Positions 12,229 through 24,588 of a DNA stretch of 24,638 nt are shown piece after piece; the first letter of the stretch is position 1, and the number at the start of each line of letters is the position of its first letter. The notes beneath the pieces were generated by a model, which searched no databases, was not told the DNA's origin, and worked only from the letters and a program-made list of their open reading frames with translations. The position numbers were made by a program, and so were the translations under genes. The DNA is from a virus, in UHGV virus genome UHGV-0052151. The stretch is one strand, 5' to 3'.

Positions 12229-12894
12229 TTAAAGATCCGGATCTACAGGCTCATGATATAGATTTACAGGGTAATGAATAACTTCATAATTCAGTTGAGT
12301 AACTGTGTGAACATGCTGGCTATAAAAAACCAATGGATTTTTTTGACAAGGAGTAATCGTTATAGATTTACAGGCATGAATTCTTGGTGCGAATTTATCT
12401 AAATGCGCCTTCCAGTTGCTCATCATTTCATTACATTTTCTATTACGAGTATAGATAATCAATCCACCACTTGCGCTGTCTACGGTCCCTGTACTATATC
12501 GCTCAGTGAGTTGAGCATACCCTTTAAATAAATAACTATATGAAGATGTATGTTTTTTGGCTTCGCCATGCCAAATATAATCCTTTAGTTTTATTGTAAT
12601 ATCACAATGTCCGCGCTGATTATTTTCATGATATGCTTCAATGCCCATATCTTTATTTTTGATATTGGCCAATAAAATTAAAGTAAGCTGATCTTCTGTT
12701 AAATCGAAGTTTAACTTATTTGAATTCTCTTCTATTTCCTTTACAGCAGAATCAAGTTCAATCCTGACAAATTGTTTGAAATTATCGTACGATTGAAGTG
12801 CAAATCTAACACGAGTAATAGAAGCATTAATACGCTGAAGAAAAATATCATTATCAATATCAGCCAAACTCATTGCTGCAGACATTTTTAACAT
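12229..12894 (-). CDS. Hypothetical protein, third gene of AT-rich three-gene operon; weak PD-(D/E)xK-like motif
   Basis: 221 aa; ATG at 12894 shares one base with the upstream stop (TGATG); AT-rich codons; segment GHCDITIKLKDYIWHGEAKK; no family recognised. Confidence 0.6.
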   Translation of the reverse strand: MLKMSAAMSLADIDNDIFLQRINASITRVRFALQSYDNFKQFVRIELDSAVKEIEENSNKLNFDLTEDQLTLILLANIKNKDMGIEAYHENNQRGHCDITIKLKDYIWHGEAKKHTSSYSYLFKGYAQLTERYSTGTVDSASGGLIIYTRNRKCNEMMSNWKAHLDKFAPRIHACKSITITPCQKNPLVFYSQHVHTVTQLNYEVIHYPVNLYHEPVDPDL

Positions 12895-13328
12895 CAGATA
12901 ATATCCTTTGATTTAGATTCATCTAATGTAAAAAAAGGAAATACGAATGACTTATAGTCATACATAAGCTCCCCTGTAAATGGGTTTGCTAAAGATTGAC
13001 TGATTTCCGCCTCAATAACTTCCTCTATTTCAAGTTCTACAGGGTCATGAAAATCATCAACGAACCAATAATTGAGTTTTAAAAAATCAACCTTTGGGCT
13101 ACAAAGAATTTGTATGGCCGGATAGATAACCTGCTCATACGTTTCTGGCTGTAAAACCTTATTATAACCACCAGCTATATTAAATAAATCCTTATAACTT
13201 AAAGCTATATTTGATGATTTTTTAGCCCTTGCCTCGATTTCATCGTACAAATAGCAAGCTAACGCCCCAATTTCAGGGCGTTCTGCACACATTTCTTTGA
13301 TGATCTTGGGCATATCACCATCCTTCAT
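12894..13328 (-). CDS. Hypothetical acidic protein, second gene of the operon
   Basis: Track ORF 12894-13340 (TTG); ATG at 13328 with GGAG 6 nt upstream preferred; acidic C-terminal half (EIEEVIEAEISQS...); no family recognised. Confidence 0.55.
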   Translation of the reverse strand: MKDGDMPKIIKEMCAERPEIGALACYLYDEIEARAKKSSNIALSYKDLFNIAGGYNKVLQPETYEQVIYPAIQILCSPKVDFLKLNYWFVDDFHDPVELEIEEVIEAEISQSLANPFTGELMYDYKSFVFPFFTLDESKSKDII

Positions 13329-13340
13329 TGCTGACTCCAA

Positions 13341-14447
13341 TTATAATATCAGCTTTGTGAGGGTTTCGAAATCATCTTTGGATATACATTTACTTAATAT
13401 AGCATAGTTAACAGGAGAGCAACTACTCCCTCCTAGATGCCTGCGGAGTGTTCCCGGAATGATAAGCTCTACGTTATCCGCTAATTGCAGTTTTGGATTA
13501 TTTCTATCAACTCTAATTCCAATACGATACAAACCAATACTGCCTACTGCTTTGATGCCTTCCTTATTAAACAAATCATCACGTAAGTCTTTAGTGGCCA
13601 CATTTTTCTTTTCTTTATGCGTAGTCCCCTCATTCGTCAAAAATGACAAATCAAAGACTTTATAGCTTAATTTTGAATAAGGCAATGAATTTTGTTTGAA
13701 AATTGGCTCAATTAACGGATAAAAATCTTTTTCCGATGATTTAAATTCATAACCGACATGATTATACAATTCACGAATAATGTTACTCTTTGCAAAAGTA
13801 ACATTATCACCAATAATATTACCATTAGTATCTACCAAAACATGAATTTTATTAGTAACAGAGTCTAATATACAGACATCAAAACATTGTCGCTTTTCTT
13901 TTCGCTTTGCAATAATTTCATCAAACTGCTTGTATTGCGCAAGTGCTGACGGGGGAATTTTTTCTCTTACAACTAATTCTCTGACAGATGAAAAAACAAG
14001 TATTGACTGGGTGTTTTGAATAGAATAATTAACAAGTTCAGGTTGATTTTTTACAGCATTTTGCAATTGGACATCATCAAGGATCGAATCAACCAATAAT
14101 GATGGTTGATTCATCAAATTCCATTGAAAACTAAATCTGTCATTTAGTGTTTTAATTACACTATTATCTACAGTCAAACTAAATATTGCTTTTTCACCAT
14201 AAACGACCTGACCAAAAATTAGGTCATTTACGTTTGCCATAATGCCATCAAACTTTTGCCTATCTTTACTTTTAAGATCAATGAGGCTTTCTAGTATTTT
14301 TTCGTTTGTTGCTTCACGCCCCCTACCTGTTGGCAGCCCTAAAGACGCAATAATTGGCCTTGCAACGTTCCATGTGAAACGTTCAGTTAAGGTCAAGATC
14401 GACTTTAACTCAGACTTAGAAAGCACTACTGGGACACTACCTGTCAT
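13341..14447 (-). CDS. Hypothetical protein, first gene of the operon
   Basis: Track ORF to 14456 (GTG); ATG at 14447 preceded by AGGTG; about 368 aa; no P-loop or other motif recognised. Confidence 0.6.
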   Translation of the reverse strand: MTGSVPVVLSKSELKSILTLTERFTWNVARPIIASLGLPTGRGREATNEKILESLIDLKSKDRQKFDGIMANVNDLIFGQVVYGEKAIFSLTVDNSVIKTLNDRFSFQWNLMNQPSLLVDSILDDVQLQNAVKNQPELVNYSIQNTQSILVFSSVRELVVREKIPPSALAQYKQFDEIIAKRKEKRQCFDVCILDSVTNKIHVLVDTNGNIIGDNVTFAKSNIIRELYNHVGYEFKSSEKDFYPLIEPIFKQNSLPYSKLSYKVFDLSFLTNEGTTHKEKKNVATKDLRDDLFNKEGIKAVGSIGLYRIGIRVDRNNPKLQLADNVELIIPGTLRRHLGGSSCSPVNYAILSKCISKDDFETLTKLIL

Positions 14448-14597
14448 AACTTGCACCTAGTCATCCAAAAAGCAATAAGAATTTGCTCTTGTCTTAATTT
14501 ATCCTTCGATACCTAACAAATTACCTCAATGTTGAAAAAATTTGCAAGCCATTTGCTTCTAAAAAGCGACCTTACTCAGAGTGTTACAAAACTAAGC

Positions 14598-14633
14598 GAG
14601 CGCGCGCTCGTATCCCCGCCACGCCTGCCCGCT
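14598..14633. other. Candidate cos (cohesive-end) site
   Basis: Minus strand reads GGCGTGGCGGGGATACGAG; its first 13 nt match the P2/186 19-nt cohesive end as I recall it (GGCG[A/T]GGCGGGGAAAGCA[C/T]). It sits in a GC-rich island between Q and A, where cos is expected; a 14-bp perfect palindrome CGAGCGCGCGCTCG (14598-14611) is adjacent. Confidence 0.4.
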
Positions 14634-14947
14634 TTATGTAGTGGTTTTCATGCACCTGCATGTTCTACGTAAAAGCCCGCTAGTTCTGGCGAGCCTTAGC
14701 AAAAACGATCCTTAAACGATCATGCGATTTCATGCAGCATAGTCATGCACTGTCTAAGAGAAGTGAAAGTCCGTATCTGAATGACCACTTGAAAAACGAA
14801 ACATACAGACTTACAAAGATGAAGCTCTACTGTGAGCGAGGAACATACATAGTTGCTCTGTAATAGCCAAATTTTAAGCAGGAAATCTCTTTTTTATGAC
14901 AAAACTATAAAGAAAAACAGACCGTTTCATCGCTCGATGAAAATATA

Positions 14948-16525
14948 CTACAATACTTTTCTCTCGATGGTATTTTTAATAGTCAACATATCTTTAGGAA
15001 TACTTTTTTTCCCCTCTATACGTATGGTAAACACAAAAAGAATAACGGCTGATCTCACAATTTTCATGAGTTGTAAGAGCTGTTTCTCAAACTTTTCTTT
15101 CTCAATAAACCTCACCTCATCAAAAAACCCATAAGAATTATATAAATCAACTAACATGTCTTTCTCGTGAATAACTAACAGTTTATGTTCTAAATCATTC
15201 CTCCATTCTTTAAAAAAAGCAAGCTCACCATTTTTATCATTCAAATCCATAGCAATACTAAACAAACCCAGCAATCCTTTATTATTTATTTTGTTTATTT
15301 TAAGCTTTCTTTTTTCATCACTAATCCGCCAGAAGTTATGAAAGTATATATGTCCTCTATCTGGTTTTAAATCAAATAATTGACACAGAGCAACTGCTAT
15401 TTTATCCAAGATACCAAAGCAAGCTCTAAATGCAACCCTTAACTTCTCAACATTTTCATACAATATTTCTCCATTATACAATTCAGAATAACATACCTCC
15501 GAATCCTCATCAAAAAACTCACTATCAACCTTATATTCAAAAAACATTTTTCGTGCTAAGGAATACTCAGCTTTAAGTCTATTTAACACCATTTCCATTG
15601 GCACTATAAAATCACCAAACACACCTTCCTCGGTGGTAGCAATAGTTATATTATCTTTAGATGACGCATAACAATTGCAATATAGCGAATGATCAGACAA
15701 CATTAGATTATTATCTATACAAAACCTCTGGTAGTTTGATAAAGTATCATACTCCTCCTGCGTGAGCCTTTCATCTGTACTTATATCCTCTATGCCATAT
15801 ACACATGATTCACTCAATATACTTTCGTTGTACTTTATTTTTCTTTGAAGAGCAACCTTCCATGAAGGAAAACATTTCCCTGACTTTATTGCACACTCAT
15901 AACCTCGAATAACTTCTTTAATCATTTTATATGTATATGTTGTAGATAATTCATTAAGCAATTCTAATGCCTCAGATCTGTTTACCCACGCCTGAGGAAT
16001 TGAGTTATCAATAGATATTGCTTGTTCATAATAATCCATTGATTCAGATATACGATATTGTTTTTTTAATACATTAGCTAGATTAACTATTAAATCAGGG
16101 GGCACCCATCCATCTTCTTGTGAAAGTTTAAACGCTTTCCAGTAATTATTTTTTACATCATTCAGCTTAATGAAACTATCAATATCTGCATTGTCATTAG
16201 GATTAAAATCAAGAACTGCGCTCATTCCATTTGCCAAGTTATAGTAATATAAGGATTCTTTCATTATAGTCAGAAATTCATTTTTATTGTTTATAAAGAT
16301 ATTTAAGCCTTCCTCTGCTATATTTTTTACATTACTAAAACTTCCGATATCAATAAGATTTCCGGCCAAATTAGATAATATAATTATTCTATTTTCTTTG
16401 ATTGTATTTATCTCATCGATACCGTTAAGAATATCCTTTACATTTTTATAGGCAGAATCAAATGAACCTGCATTAATAAGATCATCTACGAACCCCATTT
16501 TTGAAACAACATAGTTGATATCCAT
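14948..16525 (-). CDS. Hypothetical 525-aa protein; helical/TPR-like N-terminal region, C-terminal Rx4H (HEPN-like) motif
   Basis: ATG at 16525 with AGAGGA 6 nt upstream; strongly AT-rich; occupies the old/tin position of P2; no Walker A, no reverse-transcriptase YxDD motif; WRNDLEHK near residue 442. Confidence 0.6.
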   Translation of the reverse strand: MDINYVVSKMGFVDDLINAGSFDSAYKNVKDILNGIDEINTIKENRIIILSNLAGNLIDIGSFSNVKNIAEEGLNIFINNKNEFLTIMKESLYYYNLANGMSAVLDFNPNDNADIDSFIKLNDVKNNYWKAFKLSQEDGWVPPDLIVNLANVLKKQYRISESMDYYEQAISIDNSIPQAWVNRSEALELLNELSTTYTYKMIKEVIRGYECAIKSGKCFPSWKVALQRKIKYNESILSESCVYGIEDISTDERLTQEEYDTLSNYQRFCIDNNLMLSDHSLYCNCYASSKDNITIATTEEGVFGDFIVPMEMVLNRLKAEYSLARKMFFEYKVDSEFFDEDSEVCYSELYNGEILYENVEKLRVAFRACFGILDKIAVALCQLFDLKPDRGHIYFHNFWRISDEKRKLKINKINNKGLLGLFSIAMDLNDKNGELAFFKEWRNDLEHKLLVIHEKDMLVDLYNSYGFFDEVRFIEKEKFEKQLLQLMKIVRSAVILFVFTIRIEGKKSIPKDMLTIKNTIERKVL

Positions 16526-16812: not shown

Positions 16813-17046
16813 TTAATGCAGCCAGCTGTCGTCTTCCCACACCTTCTGCATAATTTTCATCACTTGCTTCCTTTCTTCGTCCAGTTGCAGTCCGGTCAGT
16901 TCCACACCGTTAGAGCTACCTTTGCGAATGCGAATTACCGTTTTGGGATACAGGGGGCGCAGATTGCGGTAAAGCTCGGATTCAAGGGCGTCCAGGGTAG
17001 ACTGGCTAATCTTCTGCTCTTTATCGATCATTATTTCAATGCGCAT
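16813..17046 (-). CDS. DinI-like SOS protein (C-terminal-Tum-like)
   Basis: Track ORF 16813-17118; ATG at 17046 with GAGGTG upstream gives MRIEIMIDKEQKISQSTLDALESELYRNL...QKVWEDDSWLH, resembling the DinI N- and C-terminal patterns. Confidence 0.7.
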   Translation of the reverse strand: MRIEIMIDKEQKISQSTLDALESELYRNLRPLYPKTVIRIRKGSSNGVELTGLQLDEERKQVMKIMQKVWEDDSWLH

Positions 17047-17056
17047 AAAAGTCACC

Positions 17057-17245
17057 TCAGCTGATGACATCCATTGAGCGGTTGTATTCGTGGGTTCTGA
17101 TTTTTGCCATGAGTTCATCTGTCAGTTCAGAAACCCACTGCAGGGCCAGCCCCTTCTCTTCATCACTACACTCACTAGCCGCTACAAGCTTAAGAAAAAA
17201 ATCAATGCGCTGGAGCTTCAAAGACTCCAAAAAATAGTCCTGCAT
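17057..17245 (-). CDS. Small SOS-operon protein (possible antirepressor, 186 Tum N-terminal-like by position)
   Basis: ATG at 17245 with AGGAGG 6 nt upstream; 62 aa; LexA box 44 nt upstream; stop 10 nt before the DinI-like start. Confidence 0.45.
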   Translation of the reverse strand: MQDYFLESLKLQRIDFFLKLVAASECSDEEKGLALQWVSELTDELMAKIRTHEYNRSMDVIS

Positions 17246-17398: not shown

Positions 17399-19813
17399 TT
17401 AATACAGGTTCCGCCACTTATCATCTTCCTGCAAACGCTGGTTCCGATAGAAAATACGCAGGCCTGCTCCTGACGGAATGCTGCCGCCGCGAAGGAGTAA
17501 ATCGACCTCTTTCTCGCTGCCATCAAATCCTCTGGACTTCAGTTCATAGACGAGCTGCTGTCGCTGATGATCTGTAATTCGCTGTTTGTAGTCTCTACGC
17601 CGTTTCGGTTTCACCAGGCGTAACCTTGCAGCCAGTTCCCGACGCTCTTTTTTGTTCATACTGTGCAGGTAATCGTGCAATTCCTTGTCATCCATGCGGG
17701 TGATATCCGTTCTGGTATCCCCATCAGCTGATTTGTCTTTCCCTTGTTGGTACAAATTTTCAGCAAGGGGACAGTTATTGCCACGAGTCCAAGGGGCGCA
17801 AGCGCCATGGTCGGCTGCCGCCTCCTGAACGTCAACGGCCTTACGAACCATTTTCCACTTCACGGCATGAGTGCAGATCTTGCCCTCTGCAATAGGTGAC
17901 CAGATGCCATAAATACGAATGCCGTGATCGCCATAGGCGGTCGGCTCTTCGTTGATTTCATAAGCAGTTCTGATGAGGTGATATTTACGGGGAACCAGTA
18001 CGCCGCCCTGCTTCATGATGTAGGTGGCAAAACAACCAGCATCAGCAGCAGCCAGGATTGCATCAAGCCGCGGGTTATCCAGTACCGGCGCACCTGCTTT
18101 TTTGTCACCCTGTTGCCTTGCCGCCTGACCAGCCAGCAATCGCAGTTCACGGTAAGCCTGACGCCCCGGAATGCCAAAGAAGCGGAATTGCTGAACACGA
18201 TGCAGAGACGCCCAGGCATTCACGTATTCAGCGTTATCACGCAGGGATTTACCCGTTTCCTTGCTGATCTCGCCAGCCAGACCACGCCCGTCAATGTTCT
18301 TACTGATATATTTCGCGATGTAGCTTGTCGGCGTTCCTTTGCGCGGGTTAATCAACTCAGACTTAAAGCGTGGTCCCGTGTTATTCCCCAGCTCCTCGCG
18401 GTCTTCACGAATGGCAAACTTACGCAACAAAGCAGTAATGGCGCGGCGATCTTTTTTGCGCATAAAACACAACAGGTGCCAGTGAACTGTACCGTCATGA
18501 TGCGGCTCAGCCACCCGCACGCCATACCAGCGCAATCCGGCTTTGTGCATCGCCTTACGAAATGCAGCAAACATGCCAACCAGATAATCACTGCTTTGTC
18601 TTACCGTCGCATTTGTCCAGGTCGGGTTGGGCCTGCCGTTATTTAGCGTGGAATGGAAACGTGACGGACAGGTGATGGTGTAGAAAACGGCGCAGTCACC
18701 GCGCATTTCCGCGATAAGCTCCAGGCCTTTAACACAGGCCATCATCTCATTGCGGCGATGCGCAGGGTTGCTGCTGCTGGCGTTTACCACATCCTCCATG
18801 TCCAGCGTGTCGCCGTCTTCGTTCACCAGTTCATGAGAACGGAAAAACTCCAGCGACTTACGGCGCTGCTCACGTTTATGCATCACGGCTTCATAGCTGA
18901 CATAGGGAGATGCTTTTTTGCTGACCAGACAGACAGCACGCAACTGCTCTTCCCGCCATTCGCAACGCATCTTCCATAATTTCCGATACCACCAGTCGGC
19001 GCACAGCATACGCGCCAGCGAACCCGGAATGAGTTCATAGGGCACAGGTTTGCGGCGGTTTCTTTTCCGGCGGAGTTGCTCAAACGCAGGCGGTATGACA
19101 TCCAGTCGCAGGGTTTCTGCTGCCACCTTTTCCCATGTCTTGCGGATTTCTTCCGGCTTAACATCATCGGAGGCGTACAAATCACCACAAGCGGCATCAA
19201 GGCACATACTCATATGCGCAGCTACCAGGGTGGACAGGCGTTTCACCTGATCCTGACTCATTTCAGGCAGGATCAGCAGGCCGTCCAGCCCTTCATGGCT
19301 TGCCATAAAGCGAAAAGACGCAGATAGCTGACTGTCGCGTACATGCTCCAGTCGTTCCAGACATGGCTTAATCGTCTCACGCAAATAGCGGGAATAAGCC
19401 TTTGGCCTGCTCAGGCTGCTGAAGTATTCAATACGTTGCATCAGCGGCTTGCTGATATGGGAAGGCTGGGCGTTGACGTCCGCCAGAATGACCATATCCG
19501 GATTAAAACGCTGCTGCTCATGCGCCAGCTTTGCCCGACTAATGAGCTTATCCTGTTCCATTTCGCGCTGGACAGGATCACGGGATTCATTAAAGAAATA
19601 ACGCTCCCAGACCTGATCACTCAGCGCCTCACGGCGCAGCTGTTCCTGCTCGTTATCGGCAGCGTACAGAGTGATCAGGTTTGAAAGCGCAGAAACCGGC
19701 GCAACTTCCGCCGGGTCCAGATAAGGGTTAATGGCCTTTTTCGGGCTGTTCCATGAGAATGCTGCGGCGACCTCGTTAAAGCCGCTGCAGTTGTTCATAT
19801 CAGCATGGCTCAT
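17399..19813 (-). CDS. A: Rolling-circle replication initiator (P2 gpA-like)
   Basis: 804 aa; HUH motif (VHWHLL) and paired active-site tyrosines (YIAKYISK); ATG at 19813 overlaps the dam stop (ATGA). Confidence 0.9.
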
Positions 19814-20667
19814 GCACGCACTCCGTACACGGCAGAACTATCCACGCCACGCGAAGGATCAAATCCCACCCAGCAGCGCGGCCCGGAAACAGCGATGATT
19901 TCTGTTGCAGATTTACTCTCACCAGCTGCCACACCGATGCTGCGTTTTGCCTTGATGTAGTGGTGAGTAAAATTGCGATATAGCGAACGGATCAGGGATG
20001 TGTCACTGTTAGAAACAATGACCGGATGTCCTTCTGATGACCGATGTTCAAGAACGGATGCCAGGTGATACTGGTCATCTTCAGTGAAACCATCAGTGTG
20101 ATAGCCGGAAAACGTACCGTCATACGGCGGATCGCAATACACCACATCCCCCACCTGCAGCATCGCCAGCGTTTCATCAAAGCTTGCGCAGATAAACGTT
20201 GCCCGCTGGGCTTTCTCTGCAAATGCGCGAATTTCTTTTTCAGGGAAATACGGATTTTTATAATTACCGTACGGAATGTTGAAATGCCCGCTCTTGTTAT
20301 AGCGACATAAACCACGGTAACCGTGACGATTGAGATACAGGAAATATACCGCTTTCATGAAATCAGTAATTTCAGTTGAGTAATTAAACTCCTGCCTTAT
20401 GTTGTAATAAGCCACCTCCCTGTTTGCTTCCTTAAATAAAACTCTGGCGCGAGATATAAACGATTCACAATCAGCGGCAACCTTTTTATAGAGGTTGATT
20501 AAATCAGGATTAATATCCGCAACCAGATAGCTTGGATAATCCGTCGCCATCATCACAGCACAGGAACCTGCGAAAGGTTCAACCAGTCGCGGGCCAGCAG
20601 GAAGGTGTTTTTTCAGTTCGGACATAATTGCGGTTTTATTTCCCGCCCATTTCAGGATGGTGCTCAT
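19810..20667 (-). CDS. dam: DNA adenine methyltransferase (Dam family, orphan)
   Basis: Track ORF to 20727; ATG at 20667 ([11 protein letters not shown]...) preferred; motif [10 protein letters not shown] and motif IV DPPY (VYCDPPYDG); no adjacent restriction gene. Confidence 0.85.
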
Positions 20668-20891
20668 ACAGCACCTCCGTTGTAATGTTTGCCTTTCAGC
20701 TCTGCGATTTCCTGACAGGTAATGCAAAGCTGCACACCTGGAATGGCGCGGCGGCGTGCTGGCGGAATTGGCGCTTCACACTCAATGCAAAGCACGCGGG
20801 ACACGCCCGGCGTTTTGGCACGGGCAGCACGGATATGGCGCTGGCGTTCTTCTTCAACGCGCTGCTGTACGAGATCCATTGCATCAGCCAT
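20664..20891 (-). CDS. TraR/DksA-family C4 zinc-finger protein
   Basis: 75 aa with CIEC-x17-CITC spacing (CxxC-x17-CxxC) typical of phage TraR-like proteins. Confidence 0.65.
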   Translation of the reverse strand: MADAMDLVQQRVEEERQRHIRAARAKTPGVSRVLCIECEAPIPPARRRAIPGVQLCITCQEIAELKGKHYNGGAV

Positions 20892-21124
20892 TAGTGGATC
20901 TCCTGCGCTTCGTTCTGGATTGCTTCAGCAGTTACACGCAGTAGTTCTGCTGCTTCGACGTGGTTTAGCTGGCGGGATGTGATATGACACGCCAGGCTAT
21001 CAAGGCGAGCTGCCATTGCTTCAGCCCTTGCCCGGCGTTCTTCCAGACGAGCCTCTGTCAGTAAAATATTAAGCCCTGCATCATCCGGTCTGGTTTTAGT
21101 CGTGAGGGTTTCAATATTACGCAT
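20891..21124 (-). CDS. Hypothetical early protein
   Basis: ATG at 21124 with AGGAG upstream; 77 aa; coupled to the downstream zinc-finger gene. Confidence 0.45.
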   Translation of the reverse strand: MRNIETLTTKTRPDDAGLNILLTEARLEERRARAEAMAARLDSLACHITSRQLNHVEAAELLRVTAEAIQNEAQEIH

Positions 21125-21191
21125 AATCAATTCTCCTGAATTTAGATAAAGGGATACCCGGCGGGTTTACGCCATTAATTTCATTAGTTGG

Positions 21192-21533
21192 TTAATTCGG
21201 CATGGTTAGCCGTCTGGGAAATAAGCTCACCACTGCACGAAAATGATTCATTGCTTTAATCAACTCCCGCTTTTCGTCAGTGGTCAGCTCATTAATGCTG
21301 ATGCTATGACGTTCAGCTGGAATTTTTGCCATAAAGAATATAGCAGCCAGTGCCCGTTTATTTTGTTCGTTATTGATATCCCGTGGATCACGCATATCTT
21401 TAATAAACCGCTCAAGCTCTGACTCAATATTCAGGCCAAAAACTTTCGCCCTTAGCTCCGCAATGTGATTAAGTCCATTCAGGCGTTCACCGGGGCTTAA
21501 TGGAACAGTCGCCGCAGCGCCTTCAATAGCCAT
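21192..21533 (-). CDS. Hypothetical early protein
   Basis: 113-aa ORF, ATG at 21533 with G-rich RBS; position of 186 early genes between cII and A. Confidence 0.45.
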   Translation of the reverse strand: MAIEGAAATVPLSPGERLNGLNHIAELRAKVFGLNIESELERFIKDMRDPRDINNEQNKRALAAIFFMAKIPAERHSISINELTTDEKRELIKAMNHFRAVVSLFPRRLTMPN

Positions 21534-21697
21534 TTGTTCCCCCGTTTTTTCGTAGATAGTTCTGCCAGCAATTCATCTTGTGAACGGCACGGATGCCAGC
21601 GTTTACCATCCTCCCCCATGATCCAGCCGTGACCGTAGTGCATTGCCGGGCTTTGTTTTACCAGCAGCGATGCAAATGATGGTTCTTTCGTCAGCAT
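21497..21697 (-). CDS. Hypothetical early protein (position of 186 fil)
   Basis: Track ORF 21497-21727; ATG at 21697 with GAGGTG upstream, 7 nt after the cII stop. Confidence 0.4.
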   Translation of the reverse strand: MLTKEPSFASLLVKQSPAMHYGHGWIMGEDGKRWHPCRSQDELLAELSTKKRGNKWLLKALRRLFH

Positions 21698-21704
21698 AAG
21701 CACC

Positions 21705-22214
21705 TCACAGCAAACCGAATGACGCACCGAGGCCAGTTACAGTATCAACTGCACTTGCCATCGCAGGATTAGCCTGTAAACGGGCCTGCAATGAAACAGC
21801 CGCCAGCGCCATCAGTCGTGTTACAGAGTTAATGCTGCTGATGGCATCACGACGACCGGCACAGGTTTTTACATCGCCAGATACCGCACCTGCAGCAACA
21901 CGCCCGATCTCTGCGGTTGCACTCATGACGTAATGTGGCAGTTTCTCTTTTGCCACCTCATTAATCGGTACACATGGCAGACAATGAATCTGTGCCAGAA
22001 AACCATCTACCAGCGTTGAATCTTCAGTCAGATCGGTAAGCAGCCAGATTTCTGGTGCGGTTAATAAATGAGGCTGAGCTGGGTTCAGCTTGTTCCGCAG
22101 AATCTGCACATTCATGCCTGCACGTTCTGCCAGTTGCACCAGATTGTGGCGCAGTGCAAATGCACGACAGGCTTCATCAAAATGTGGATGTTTGGAAACT
22201 TGGTAATCAAACAT
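21705..22214 (-). CDS. cII: CII-like lysogeny-establishment regulator (186 type)
   Basis: From ATG at 22214 the product starts [24 protein letters not shown] and ends SFGLL, closely resembling 186 CII as I recall it; 169 aa. Confidence 0.8.
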
Positions 22215-22246
22215 GGTCAATGCCTCTGATGTATTTCAGAATCGAA

Positions 22247-22468
22247 CTAATTAAGGTTTAGATTGCATTCTGAAAGCGCATCAACGGTCATGGCTGCTAT
22301 GTTGATCATCACTTTTTCGCGTTTTTTATCTTTGCGCAAACGGTGACGGATAAGGCGTCCATCAGCCAACATGTCATTGATGGTATCGATGGACAGTCCT
22401 GTCAGCTCGCTATAGCGTTCAATAGTCACATGAGGCGTGGTAAGAGTGATTGAAATGTTAGGTCTCAT
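22247..22468 (-). CDS. apl: Apl-like excisionase/repressor of the lysogenic promoter
   Basis: 73 aa, first gene of the minus-strand early operon, divergent from cI, upstream of cII (186 apl position). Confidence 0.6.
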
Positions 22469-22593
22469 GATGCAACATTCCTCGTTTAATGATGATTAAT
22501 CAGGACGAATACGGATCGTTTGTATTTTGTGAACACCATAAACATACGATCGCACGATGAAATCGTCAAGATAAAAGTTCACTTGGAGTGACC
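22469..22593. promoter_or_regulatory. Lysis-lysogeny switch region (face-to-face pR/pL, CI operators expected)
   Basis: 125-bp region between divergent apl and cI; direct repeats ATACGGATCG (22509-22518) and ATACGATCG (22544-22552), each with a GATC, and inverted repeat ACGAT-GAA-ATCGT (22554-22566). Confidence 0.4.
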
Positions 22594-23163
22594 ATGAATT
22601 TGGAGAAAGGCGGACGAGGCGCTATAGAGCGCATGGTAGAAGCTTATGGATTCAAAACTCGACAGGCGTTGTGCGATCATTTAGGAATCTCTAAAAGTAC
22701 ACTCGCTACACGCTACATGCGTGACTCATTCCCAGCAGAATGGGTAATCCAGTGCGCCCTTGAAACGGGCACCTCGCTTAATTGGCTCACAACTGGACAT
22801 GGTTCAAAGCAAACTTCAGGTAATACAAATACGATGGAAGTTGCTAAATATGTATTATCTGATGGTGCCTTGCGTGAAGACGGTTTTTATATTTTTGATA
22901 AGGGATTTCTACCCTCTACGTTTAAAAAACCTTTTGTCATCACAGATAACAATTCTGAATTTATTTGTGATAAAGAATTTGATGATATACGTGATGGTAA
23001 ATGGGTAATAAGTATTGATGGCGAAATAACAATCCGCGACATTACTCGTTTACCCGGTGGAAGAATCTTCGTTGAAGGTGGAAACAGAGCCTTCGAGTGC
23101 AAGATAGAAGATGTTGAAATAATTGGAAAAATTATAAGTTTAACAATTAAGTACGTTAGGTAA
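22594..23163 (+). CDS. cI: CI immunity repressor (186 type)
   Basis: ATG at 22594 with GGAG upstream; 189 aa; segments VEAYGF, CALETGTSLNWLTTGHG and ITIRDITRLPGGRIFVEGG resemble 186 CI as I recall it. Confidence 0.85.
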   Translation: MNLEKGGRGAIERMVEAYGFKTRQALCDHLGISKSTLATRYMRDSFPAEWVIQCALETGTSLNWLTTGHGSKQTSGNTNTMEVAKYVLSDGALREDGFYIFDKGFLPSTFKKPFVITDNNSEFICDKEFDDIRDGKWVISIDGEITIRDITRLPGGRIFVEGGNRAFECKIEDVEIIGKIISLTIKYVR

Positions 23164-23370: not shown

Positions 23371-23556
23371 TTTTTGCTTTTATATCTGCGCCTAATATAA
23401 CAATGAGCCGCAGGCTAACCGCAAAAGTCACATACTCACATAGCAAAAAATAGCCAACTTCATTATGGCTTCAGTGAGATGTATGGTCGCAAGATTTCAT
23501 ACATTGACACTGGTTATACATACAGTAAAAATGCTCTCTATTGGAGGGCATTTTTT

Positions 23557-24588
23557 ATGGCAGTACGAAAACTCACCACAGGAAAATGGCTTTGCGAATG
23601 TTACCCCGCCGGACGTAGTGGGCGTCGTGTGCGTAAACAATTCGCCACCAAAGGCGAAGCACTGGCTTTTGAGCGTCACACGATGGAAGAAACCGAAGCA
23701 AAGCCCTGGCTGGGCGAATCAGTAGATCGTCGAACCCTGAAAGACGTGGTTGAGCTATGGTTCAAACTACATGGTAAATCTCTGACTGCTGGGCAGCATG
23801 TCTATGACAAATTGCTGCTGATGGTTGACGCTCTGGGCAATCCCCTTGCAACCGATCTCACATCTAAAATGTTTGCCCATTATCGAGATAAACGACTGAC
23901 AGGTGAGATCTACTTCAGCGAGAAATGGAAGAAAGGGGCCAGCCCGGTCACCATTAACCTGGAGCAAAGCTATCTAAGTAGTGTTTTTAGCGAACTATCC
24001 CGCCTGGGCGAATGGTCGTATCCAAACCCACTGGAGAACATGCGAAAATTCACCATCGCAGAAAAAGAGATGGCATGGCTTACCCATGAGCAGATTGTTG
24101 AACTGCTGGATGATTGCAAACGTCAGGACCCAATTCTGGCACTGGTAGTCAAGATATGCTTAAGCACAGGCGCACGCTGGCGAGAAGCAATAAACCTTAC
24201 CCGATCACAGGTGACCAAATACCGAATTACCTTTGTAAGAACGAAGGGGAAGAAAAACAGAAGCATCCCTATCAGTAAAGAGCTTTATGAAGAGATCATG
24301 GCGCTTGATGGGTTCAATTTCTTCACAGACTGCTATTTTCAATTTTTATCCGTGATGGAAAAAACGTCTATCGTGCTCCCTCGCGGTCAACTTACACACG
24401 TTCTGCGTCATACGTTTGCGGCGCATTTCATGATGTCGGGTGGAAACATCCTTGCTTTGCAAAAAATCCTCGGACATCACGACATAAAAATGACTATGCG
24501 TTATGCTCATCTATCACCTGATCACTTAGAGACAGCTCTTCGTTTCAATCCACTAGCAACTTTGGATGTTACTAAATCAGATTCTTAA
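23557..24588 (+). CDS. int: Tyrosine integrase
   Basis: Track ORF from 23479; ATG at 23557 with GGAGGG RBS gives MAVRKLTTGKWLCECYPAG...; C-terminal HVLRHTFAAHF (HxxR) and MRYAHLS (catalytic Tyr) motifs; 343 aa. Confidence 0.9.
   Translation: MAVRKLTTGKWLCECYPAGRSGRRVRKQFATKGEALAFERHTMEETEAKPWLGESVDRRTLKDVVELWFKLHGKSLTAGQHVYDKLLLMVDALGNPLATDLTSKMFAHYRDKRLTGEIYFSEKWKKGASPVTINLEQSYLSSVFSELSRLGEWSYPNPLENMRKFTIAEKEMAWLTHEQIVELLDDCKRQDPILALVVKICLSTGARWREAINLTRSQVTKYRITFVRTKGKKNRSIPISKELYEEIMALDGFNFFTDCYFQFLSVMEKTSIVLPRGQLTHVLRHTFAAHFMMSGGNILALQKILGHHDIKMTMRYAHLSPDHLETALRFNPLATLDVTKSDS

Follow-up and report, generated by a model that had tools for sequence, protein, structure and literature searches.

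The window analyzed here, a 24,638-nucleotide stretch of virus genome UHGV-0052151, carries an early region of the P2/186 family (Peduoviridae), in which cI and int diverge from an apl-cII-fil-...-A operon, the promoters lie face to face and the replication gene encodes a GPA-type nickase. The plus strand holds a 186-type two-domain CI repressor (22588-23163; PF07022, 2.8e-33, and PF16452, 2e-28), which has the recognition helix SKSTLATR and 32% identity to 186 CI, and a tyrosine integrase (23479-24588; PF24624 and PF00589). On the minus strand, a predicted early lytic promoter pR (22541-22569; -35 hexamer TTGACG at 22569-22564, 17-nt spacer, -10 hexamer TATGTT at 22546-22541) precedes a series of early genes, the first of which (22247-22468, 73 aa) was assigned to the Apl/Cox position from its place between pR and cII; this ORF had no Pfam or NCBIfam match and shares 84-92% identity with the same-position ORF in two related loci (L003 and L008). 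It is followed by a CII-like regulator of lysogeny establishment (21705-22220; PF06892, 4.1e-42), a Fil-like cell-division inhibitor whose true start is probably internal to the ORF (21497-21727; PF10893, 2.5e-24), a DUF5347 gene (21192-21533; PF17282, 3.7e-33), a DUF2732 gene homologous to 186 Orf79 and P2 Orf80 (20891-21130; PF10809, 2.1e-28), a TraR/DksA-type C4 zinc-finger gene (20664-20891, 75 aa; PF01258, 3.1e-11), the DNA adenine methyltransferase gene dam (19810-20667) that is the subject of this section, and gene A (17399-19813, 804 aa; PF05840 Phage_GPA, 1.9e-127), a rolling-circle replication initiator whose relatives are annotated as "nicking at origin of replication". The early region is collinear with those of 186, Fels-2 and RE-2010, and phage 4LV2017 is 96% identical to the window over 75% of the window length.

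Transcriptionally, pR was the sole minus-strand sigma-70-like site between cI and A (the promoter caller also recovers the annotated 186 pR), and a search for an internal promoter that might serve dam in a lysogen found no minus-strand promoter-like site between pR and A. An Rfam scan of the window likewise returned nothing at gathering thresholds. The proposed CI-repressed unit would run pR-apl-cII-fil-DUF5347-DUF2732-traR-like-dam-A, placing dam and the rolling-circle initiator on one message with dam immediately before A; given this position in a repressed early operon, dam is probably expressed only in lytic growth.

The dam reading frame starts at ATG 20667-20665, behind a GGAGG Shine-Dalgarno sequence at 20678-20674, and stops at TGA 19812-19810, giving a 285-aa protein predicted to be an orphan D12-class, GATC-specific N6-adenine DNA methyltransferase. 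A longer, 305-aa reading from TTG 20727 was rejected since ATG 20667 has the GGAGG, and both the annotations of relatives and the N-terminus of E. coli Dam (EcoDam) fit the shorter start. As the initial annotation had proposed, the product belongs to the Dam family: it covers the whole PF02086 profile (positions 1-253 of 253; 6.9e-77, 259 bits against a cutoff of 22) and scores 323.9 bits with TIGR00571 "dam" (cutoff 114.85), both above the curated cutoffs, and is 47.7% identical to EcoDam in the structures 2G1P and 4GOL (E 4.5e-74). Catalytic motif IV is intact, with D179-P180-P181-Y182 aligned to EcoDam D181-Y184, and across an alignment of 41 clade members (55-97% identity) its Asp, second Pro and Tyr are invariant, the first Pro being Ser in one. 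Motif I lies ahead of motif IV, the alpha-class order of EcoDam, and is a variant of FxGxG (F32-A-G34-S-C36 aligned to EcoDam F35-V-G37-A-G39) whose last Gly is Cys in all 41 phage members.

Specificity can be read from the EcoDam residues with described roles in GATC recognition (K9, Y119, N120, L122, R124, P134 and Y138; PMC4417163), six of which have identical counterparts in the window protein (K6, Y117, L120, R122, P132 and Y136), while the seventh, N120, is replaced by R118 throughout the clade. The equivalents of K9, Y119, L122, R124, P134 and Y138, together with DPPY, are kept in at least 38 of the 41 members, with K9 and R124 invariant. On the strength of these six of seven recognition residues, we infer that the window encodes an active GATC-specific adenine methyltransferase of a 186/Fels-2-like P2-family prophage; since the N120-to-Arg and motif I Gly-to-Cys changes are clade-wide, its flank preference or kinetics may differ from those of EcoDam. 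Comparison of dam with its relatives gave dN/dS values of 0.06-0.18, that is, purifying selection. Like the window protein, EcoDam has the D12/alpha-class fold and motif order and is an orphan. However, EcoDam R137 is Asn across the phage clade, the window protein carries a 22-aa C-terminal tail with no EcoDam counterpart, and the EcoDam gene sits in the host damX-dam operon rather than in a repressed phage lytic operon. Scoring against the chromosomal Dam equivalog (NF008152/PRK10904) yielded 290 bits, short of the cutoff of 441, which excludes a host orthologue and, at the level of profile scores, places the window Dam in a phage subfamily.

The initial annotation had further remarked on the missing restriction partner, and the profile searches agree. 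The best PADLOC model for dam is the orphan methyltransferase oMTase (4.3e-112, against 2.8e-87 for MTase_II); its flanking genes, the TraR-like gene and A, had no nuclease family match among Pfam, NCBIfam and PADLOC profiles, profile searches found no GATC endonuclease in the window, and the cargo ORFs 5 kb from dam had no nuclease family match, three of them having no match at all. A type II restriction-modification arrangement is thus not what is seen here: neither the operon nor any of the 44 related loci contains an endonuclease gene, and the neighbours of dam in these loci are always the traR-like gene on one side and, on the other, A or an insert of 0.4-1 kb (in L012, a PAPS-reductase-like one).

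At both of its ends, dam shows a stop/start overlap with an upstream Shine-Dalgarno sequence. Downstream, its stop and the A start share the ATGA at 19810-19813 on the minus strand (TGA 19812-19810, ATG 19813-19811, read from the sequence), and A has its own GGAG at 19824-19821, 7 nt upstream of its start. Upstream, the TraR-like stop and the dam start share an ATGA at 20664-20667 on the same strand, an overlap that the initial annotation overlooked and that is also annotated in RE-2010, Fels-2 and a prophage of K. pneumoniae Kp52145. The DUF2732 gene in turn overlaps the start of the TraR-like gene, by a single nucleotide, and dam thus belongs to a series of overlapping early genes. In a survey of 43 related loci (44 rows with the window counted), an ATGA or GTGA overlap runs onto A in about 27 of the 43 and onto an inserted ORF in about seven more, and another gene lies between dam and A in 8 of 44 dam+ relatives.

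Functionally, the overlap had been taken to mean that the methylase is co-expressed with replication. The dam stop does overlap the A start, but the arrangement belongs to the expression of A and is not specific to dam, since other genes fill the same slot and overlap A likewise: a PAPS-reductase-like orf84 in phage 186 and a DUF5405 ORF, orf83, in P2. According to the 186 record, A appears to be translated only if translation proceeds to the end of orf84, and by analogy dam and A may be translationally coupled here. The likeness to 186 extends into A itself, where the 186 terminator tM1 lies about 86-113 nt into the gene and a GC hairpin occupies nt 100-118 of the window A (19696-19714), although the T-tract of this hairpin is poorly conserved and the window A protein shares only about 33% identity with A of the 186-type lineage. 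We also considered an RNA structure over the A ribosome-binding site, as in the minimum-free-energy fold (z = -2.3) GUACGGAGUG base-pairs with CACUCUGUAC, which lies about 150 nt further downstream, and the Shine-Dalgarno sequence would be sequestered; this candidate was dropped because the pairing is lost in relatives.

The gene itself is an ordinary and already known one, a routinely annotated prophage Dam. An annotated E. coli chromosome carries a sequence 100% identical to it, and the records of Fels-2, RE-2010 and Klebsiella phages list the gene as well. Felsduovirus-type P2-family phages (Fels-2 STM2730, RE-2010 gp10, Klebsiella phage 4LV2017, SopE-phi and the retron Ec67 prophage) carry the same gene in the same place, sharing with the window an 858-bp dam between a 228-bp traR-like gene and a 2415-bp A with 4-nt overlaps; their immunity modules (CI, apl and pR) and cargo loci vary, and otherwise nothing substantial differs. 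At the nucleotide level dam is 96-98% identical to its counterparts in RE-2010, 4LV2017 and an E. coli record, and its product shares 73% identity with those of Fels-2 and SopE-phi. The family was described with retron Ec67 (Hsu, Inouye & Inouye 1990), in a paper whose title speaks of "Dam methylase functions", and the Fels-2 record notes that the Fels-2 homologue (STM2730) resembles the retron Ec67 Dam. As a separate observation, M.EcoMIV of E. coli EC958, reported to be transcriptionally silent in the lysogen, may be the same gene as the window dam, a candidate identity that we do not use as evidence. More distantly, P1 Dmt and T4 Dam, which are GATC-specific orphan enzymes also encoded by phages, belong to the same Pfam family (36% and 23% identical to the window Dam, respectively) but differ in genomic context and documented roles.

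Such a gene could in principle be a neutral passenger or a decaying remnant that contributes nothing to the life cycle of the phage. What occupies the position between the TraR-like gene and A does vary, the occupants in 186 are annotated "not essential", and dam is disrupted in two relatives (L044 and L045), so it must be dispensable at least in resident prophages. Set against this are a dN/dS of about 0.1, catalytic residues that are essentially invariant among the 41 homologues at 55-97% identity, and the retention of dam in about a quarter of the complete E. coli genomes (1242 of 5426); the neutral reading is already disfavoured, and we regard it as extremely improbable.

Phages that encode a Dam are not known to avoid GATC, and P1 Dam is needed for pac-site cleavage. 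Within the P2 family, GATC content follows dam carriage: the observed/expected ratio is 0.79 in the dam+ window and 0.76 in Fels-2, as against 0.13, 0.20 and 0.22 in the dam- phages 186, P2 and PSP3 (the PSP3 record contains no dam gene), so that the tetramer is depleted 4-7 fold in the dam- kin and stands at about 0.8 of expectation in dam+ relatives. Across 284 loci gathered from four independent seeds, the medians were 0.80 for dam+ and 0.35 for dam- loci, and in the same comparison no other 4-bp palindrome showed a comparable difference. The dichotomy could also reflect lineage history rather than dam, since few deep lineages are involved (Felsduovirus-like versus Eganvirus and Peduovirus). 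The association between dam carriage and GATC content is new comparative evidence and favours self-methylation of replicating phage DNA. More broadly, a single phage family in the same hosts, with dam presence set against GATC content, offers a natural comparison for what selects against GATC, be it MutH, SeqA or restriction.

Enterobacteriophages are known to avoid GATC, fast-replicating phage DNA is poorly methylated, and phage yields are lower in dam- mutH+ hosts (PMC5014478); host Dam is described as limiting for high-copy DNA. We therefore posit, with moderate confidence, that the phage Dam most likely raises the Dam capacity available to the phage's own DNA during lytic replication. Phage DNA would be copied faster than scarce host Dam can methylate it, and the added enzyme would leave progeny genomes fully methylated at GATC, removing a penalty on un- or hemimethylated sites for which MutH incision, SeqA binding and cleavage by methylation-sensitive GATC endonucleases are the candidates. 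Relief of this penalty would account for dam+ phages tolerating normal GATC while their dam- relatives have been purged of it. Dam activity may also come at a price, since a study that used E. coli, Salmonella and P1 Dam describes retron-Sen2 toxicity triggered by Dam overproduction, and overproduction can thus be costly.

Of the functions that the initial annotation had offered, methylation of the phage's own DNA is the one that fits best, as GATC is undepleted in dam+ phages and depleted in their dam- kin; the same dichotomy does not separate avoidance of MutH and SeqA from anti-restriction. The latter would have the phage pre-methylate its progeny against MboI/DpnII/Sau3AI-type endonucleases or other defences that read unmethylated GATC, a widespread interpretation of orphan phage methyltransferases and one echoed in a published discussion in which Dam counts as an anti-restriction gene directed at type II systems. 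Restriction avoidance would equally predict normal GATC in dam+ phages and depletion in dam- kin. However, the hosts (Escherichia, Salmonella and Klebsiella) are themselves Dam+, such that phage DNA is already largely protected, the profile searches found no GATC endonuclease in the window, and methylated GATC would sensitise the phage to DpnI-like methyl-dependent enzymes, so we consider this function unlikely. It is compatible with self-methylation, and both may act together. Dam could instead be aimed at the host, over-methylating its chromosome in lytic growth and thereby disabling mismatch-repair strand discrimination or SeqA sequestration of oriC, from which the phage would benefit. Dam overproduction is linked to mutator phenotypes and perturbed strand discrimination in the discussion of PMC5014478, and the operon holds other host-directed genes, such as the Fil-like division inhibitor; such an effector would leave unexplained why phage GATC content tracks dam presence, and we judge it very improbable.

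Returning to pR, its spacer holds a GATC (22551-22548) located 1 nt upstream of the -10 hexamer. This site and a second GATC (22514-22517), both correctly placed by the initial annotation within the repeats of the switch region, form the outer ends of an imperfect palindrome (22514-22551; two 18-nt arms, 78% complementary) that takes in the -10 hexamer together with the pR start region and is probably a repressor or Apl operator region. Two GATC in the 119-bp switch region are within chance (about 0.42 expected; P about 0.07 for two or more). The position of the spacer site, by comparison, is strongly conserved: among 25 representative promoters of the window's CI subfamily, spacer positions 13-16 are G, A, T and C in 23, 23, 21 and 23 cases, respectively (1.4-1.6 bits), whereas the remaining positions carry 0.07-1.1 bits, with the exception of G at position 11 (1.47 bits).

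Mechanistically, the spacer GATC, which lies in the central copy of the repressor's operator-like repeat, and its palindromic partner could render repressor binding, or the strength of pR, sensitive to methylation, an epigenetic control of the switch that we regard as doubtful, although several observations are in its favour. Since dam is transcribed from pR, the phage Dam would feed back on all newly replicated switch copies, and by marking each of them the phage might fix the lytic decision or set a time limit on it. A C follows all 15 central copies of TGNGAT and none of the 16 non-central ones, and all 60 phage records with the window's CI type (HTH at least 60% identical; 56 from the homologue list and four ESSI2-type records inferred or checked separately) seem to encode a Dam homologue. 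P2 and PSP3, although depleted of GATC, have likewise kept one in their early promoters, and there any such effect would work by way of host Dam. According to a review, Dam methylation favours excision of SopE-phi, which has a Dam of this family and the same CI type. Yet an operator-like repeat, TG(T/C)GA(T/A), includes the GAT, and with three of the four GATC bases so explained we offer a regulatory role for methylation only as a hypothesis; the C at -14 may be constrained for other reasons as well, since it is kept in GAAC variants (L139 and L152). Our literature search found no paper on methylation of such a pR GATC.

Evolutionarily, the site occurs in 23 of 39 dam+ and 4 of 19 dam- immunity clusters, and the association follows clade structure. 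At least 15 dam+ immunity types are without it, three or four dam- types have it, and ESSI-2 and ev129 combine a related CI and dam with no pR GATC. We therefore rejected the pR GATC as a Dam-specific adaptation of dam+ phages, an idea confounded by clade structure and by the GAT operator motif and broken by ESSI-2 and ev129. What stands of the suggestion that GATC in the switch repeats modulates phage gene expression is a real and positionally conserved site, for which a regulatory role may be hypothesized. A GATC held so firmly in place within pR suggests a possible epigenetic input to a P2-family genetic switch, and could relate to the reported Dam dependence of SopE-phi excision.

The dam gene, an orphan D12-class methylase ORF, runs on the minus strand from an ATG at 20667-20665 to a TGA at 19812-19810 and encodes 285 aa, with a GGAGG 6 nt 5' of its start. 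The next ORF downstream is gene A, the replication initiator (17399-19813, minus strand, 804 aa), whose ATG (19813-19811, GGAG 7 nt 5' of it) shares the tetranucleotide ATGA with the dam stop, as the initial annotation had claimed. Absent from that annotation were two further junctions: the upstream ORF 20664-20891 stops with a TGA (20666-20664) that likewise overlaps the dam ATG, and ORF 20891-21130 overlaps this successor by one base. With overlaps at both of its ends and further upstream, dam is thus part of a series of early genes that each overlap the next. No endonuclease family was found adjoining dam or elsewhere in the scanned ORFs (Pfam, PADLOC, NCBIfam), and the best PADLOC model for the protein was 'orphan methyltransferase'; together with the profile matches and the ATGA overlap, this confirms its original identification as an orphan Dam lacking an adjacent restriction partner and chained to the replication initiator.

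Contextually, Pfam matches identify CI repressor (22588-23163, plus strand), integrase (23479-24588, plus strand) and CII (21705-22220, minus strand), and, as further neighbours of dam, Fil, DUF5347, DUF2732, a TraR/DksA zinc-finger protein and the Phage_GPA nickase A, which marks the region as the early lytic operon of a 186/Fels-2-like phage in the P2 family. Over 75% of its own length, the window is 96% identical to Klebsiella phage 4LV2017. The only minus-strand sigma-70-like site between cI and A, TTGACG-17-TATGTT at 22569-22541, was taken as the predicted early lytic promoter pR, using a simple promoter caller that, run on phage 186, also finds pR where it is annotated. The first lytic-operon gene, in the Apl/Cox position (22247-22468, minus strand, 73 aa), had no Pfam or NCBIfam match, and only the two closest immunity types carry a counterpart at 84-92% identity.

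This dam is an already known, common feature. Genes annotated as 'DNA adenine methylase' in 43 phage records, among them RE-2010, 4LV2017 and KP12, are 96-98% identical over the 858 bp; positions 19700-20900 are 100% identical to E. coli JML285; and dam with both junctions occurs in 1242 of 5426 complete E. coli genomes, where PGAP annotates a DNA adenine methylase between a TraR/DksA regulator and a replication endonuclease. A table for a K. pneumoniae prophage holds the identical 228/858/2415-bp layout with 4-nt overlaps, and the window protein shares 73% identity with Fels-2 STM2730 and with the homologue of SopE-phi, the Fels-2 record noting similarity to 'retron EC67 DNA adenine methylase'.

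Functionally, the protein matches the whole of PF02086 (D12-class N6-adenine methyltransferase; 6.9e-77), and TIGR00571 'dam' scores 324 bits (cutoff 115); the equivalog cutoff for chromosomal Dam was not reached (290 versus 441 bits). Among solved structures E. coli Dam (EcoDam, the chromosomal enzyme) was the best match (4.5e-74; 47.7% identity), followed by DpnM and T4 Dam. GATC recognition in EcoDam involves K9 and Y138 for reading the first base pair, contacts of L122 and P134 with the third and of R124 with the guanine of the fourth, intercalation of Y119 and a base hydrogen bond from N120 (PMC4417163). Apart from N120, the window protein keeps all of these recognition residues, as do nearly all of 41 phage-clade members, and the DPPY motif is intact in the window Dam; GATC specificity and methylase activity are strongly inferred. 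The clade carries its own signature at three positions: R118 replaces EcoDam N120 (Arg in all 41), N135 replaces R137 (Asn, with Lys in three members), and C36 replaces G39, the second glycine of motif I (Cys in all 41), substitutions with a possible effect on flank preference or processivity. Values of dN/dS against relatives were 0.06-0.18. Some relatives carry disrupted copies (short ORFs in loci L044 and L045, a split tblastn match in CP019275.1), and dam therefore decays in some resident prophages.

The coupling to A, which the initial annotation described for the methylase, holds as an overlap but is not specific to dam. In phage 186, the PAPS-reductase-like orf84 lies directly 5' of A with a 4-nt overlap, and the record notes that reaching the end of orf84 in translation 'appears necessary' for making A protein; in P2, orf83 overlaps A. 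Across 44 loci, comprising the window and 43 dam-containing loci of species-representative genomes (Dam 55-97% identical), dam always lies between a TraR-like gene and A, and in approximately 27 of them the dam stop and the A start share an ATGA or GTGA. Eight of the 44 have an extra gene of ~1 kb between dam and A, and in ~7 of these the extra gene itself begins at such an overlap; the insert of L012 (4852-5862), the one locus covered by the scan, is PAPS-reductase-like, and uncharacterised inserts of similar size occur in L016, L018, L019, L021 and L043. The arrangement holds across two A lineages only ~33% identical to each other. Between the TraR-like gene and A there is thus an accessory slot whose content varies, with dam alone in the window, dcm between dam and A in ESSI2_ev129 (L245 846-2704), and an exonuclease subunit, DUF5405 and PAPS reductase in 186 (L082 24890-26747), and its occupants are predicted from their overlaps to be translationally chained to A. 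Since orf84, orf83, the inserts and dcm overlap A likewise, the coupling appears to belong to A.

Within A, 100-118 nt from its start, lies a GC hairpin (CCGGCG-GAAGTTG-CGCCGG, 19714-19696, minus strand) that recalls terminator tM1 of 186, placed at about the same position (86-113 nt inside A) and 'expected' to act when the A gene is untranslated. A single compensatory variant, CCGGAG/CTCCGG in L022, was found among relatives, in which the T-tract downstream of the window hairpin is not conserved. Close by, 30 nt (GCGCTTTCAAACCTGATCACTCT, with the GATC at 19673) hardly vary in nucleotide sequence among A proteins 72-100% identical.

Genome composition, assessed as observed/expected GATC under a second-order Markov model, splits by dam status. 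The dam-containing window (24.6 kb; 87 sites) and near-complete Fels-2 (117 sites) have ratios of 0.79 and 0.76, versus 0.13 for 186 (14 sites), 0.20 for P2 (25 sites) and 0.22 for PSP3 (25 sites), three complete genomes that lack dam. Early-region loci collected from four independent seeds (284 in total) show a split in agreement with this: 0.75 for 43 dam-positive loci (Dam seed, genome contigs) and 0.80 for 76 (window CII, viral contigs), versus 0.44 and 0.29 for two sets of 80 dam-negative loci (186 CII and P2 A, viral contigs). Per-locus medians were 0.80 with dam and 0.35 without (Mann-Whitney p = 3.5e-38, the loci not being phylogenetically independent), and other 4-bp palindromes gave no comparable difference. 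The signal is clear but phylogenetically shallow, with few deep lineages behind it, and this dichotomy inside one phage family offers a modest, testable lead, the gene itself being of low interest.

The split agrees with the classical picture of GATC avoidance. According to PMC5014478 and works cited there, enterobacterial phages avoid GATC, methylation of their fast-replicating DNA is poor, and unmethylated sites do harm in mutH+ cells; host Dam is also described as limiting on high-copy DNA. Most likely, then, the phage Dam would act on the phage's own genome as it replicates in the lytic phase, and such self-methylation would lift the penalty on GATC and relieve counter-selection, a role that the position of dam directly before the rolling-circle initiator fits. 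Protection from GATC-cleaving restriction enzymes is also compatible with the comparative data, which do not separate it from MutH or SeqA avoidance.

The two GATC sites first noted in the switch region are real, and lie at either end of an imperfect palindrome with 18+18-nt arms (22514-22551, 38 bp). One of them (22551-22548) covers positions 13-16 of the pR spacer, 1 nt 5' of the -10 hexamer. Clustering of 197 loci by CI at 80% identity gave 58 clusters; the layout TTGACN-N12-GATC-N-TAnnnT, shared by Fels-2, was found in 21-23 of these, all dam-positive and all with the CI recognition helix S(K/Q)ST(M/L)A(N/T)R. Across 25 representative promoters the spacer GATC carries 1.4-1.6 bits per position, equal to conserved -10 positions, versus 0.07-1.1 bits at other spacer positions save a G at position 11 (1.47 bits). 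We found no paper on this site in a literature search; SopE-phi excision is favoured by Dam methylation according to a review. Several observations make an explanation specific to Dam less likely: GAT is part of a TG(T/C)GA(T/A) motif repeated upstream of -35 and downstream of -10, two clusters have GAAC instead, ESSI-2 and ev129 have related CI and dam without GATC at this position, and many dam-positive immunity types lack the spacer site, while a few dam-negative ones (PSP3-like, P2) have GATC in the early-promoter spacer. Nevertheless, C follows 15/15 central TGNGAT copies versus 0/16 flanking ones, and P2 and PSP3 keep the promoter GATC though it is purged elsewhere (~5-fold depleted; chance ~0.02 per promoter), the site occurring in only one of ~8 P2-type immunity variants. 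A methylation-sensitive switch at pR is a possible but improbable reading, and the fixed promoter GATC is a modest, testable lead. In the P2 early promoter Pe (L246 25884-25923), operator O1 and the base that follows it together make up the GATC (GTTTAGATC), and operator O2 reads GTTTAGATG; PSP3 pR (L248 24108-24136) reads TTTACA-N13-GATC-TATAGT.

Elsewhere in the window, a minus-strand cargo locus (12229-16525) has a DinI-like gene (16813-17118) on one side and the portal gene on the other. It encodes a 525-aa TPR and HEPN_LA2681 protein (14948-16525, Pfam 1.8e-38), followed by ORFs of 371, 148 and 221 aa that had no Pfam, PADLOC or NCBIfam match. At the equivalent slot, a known P2 hotspot, RE-2010 encodes an AIPR abortive-infection protein and 4LV2017 a 'retron St85 family effector', so this cargo is probably an uncharacterised defence cassette.
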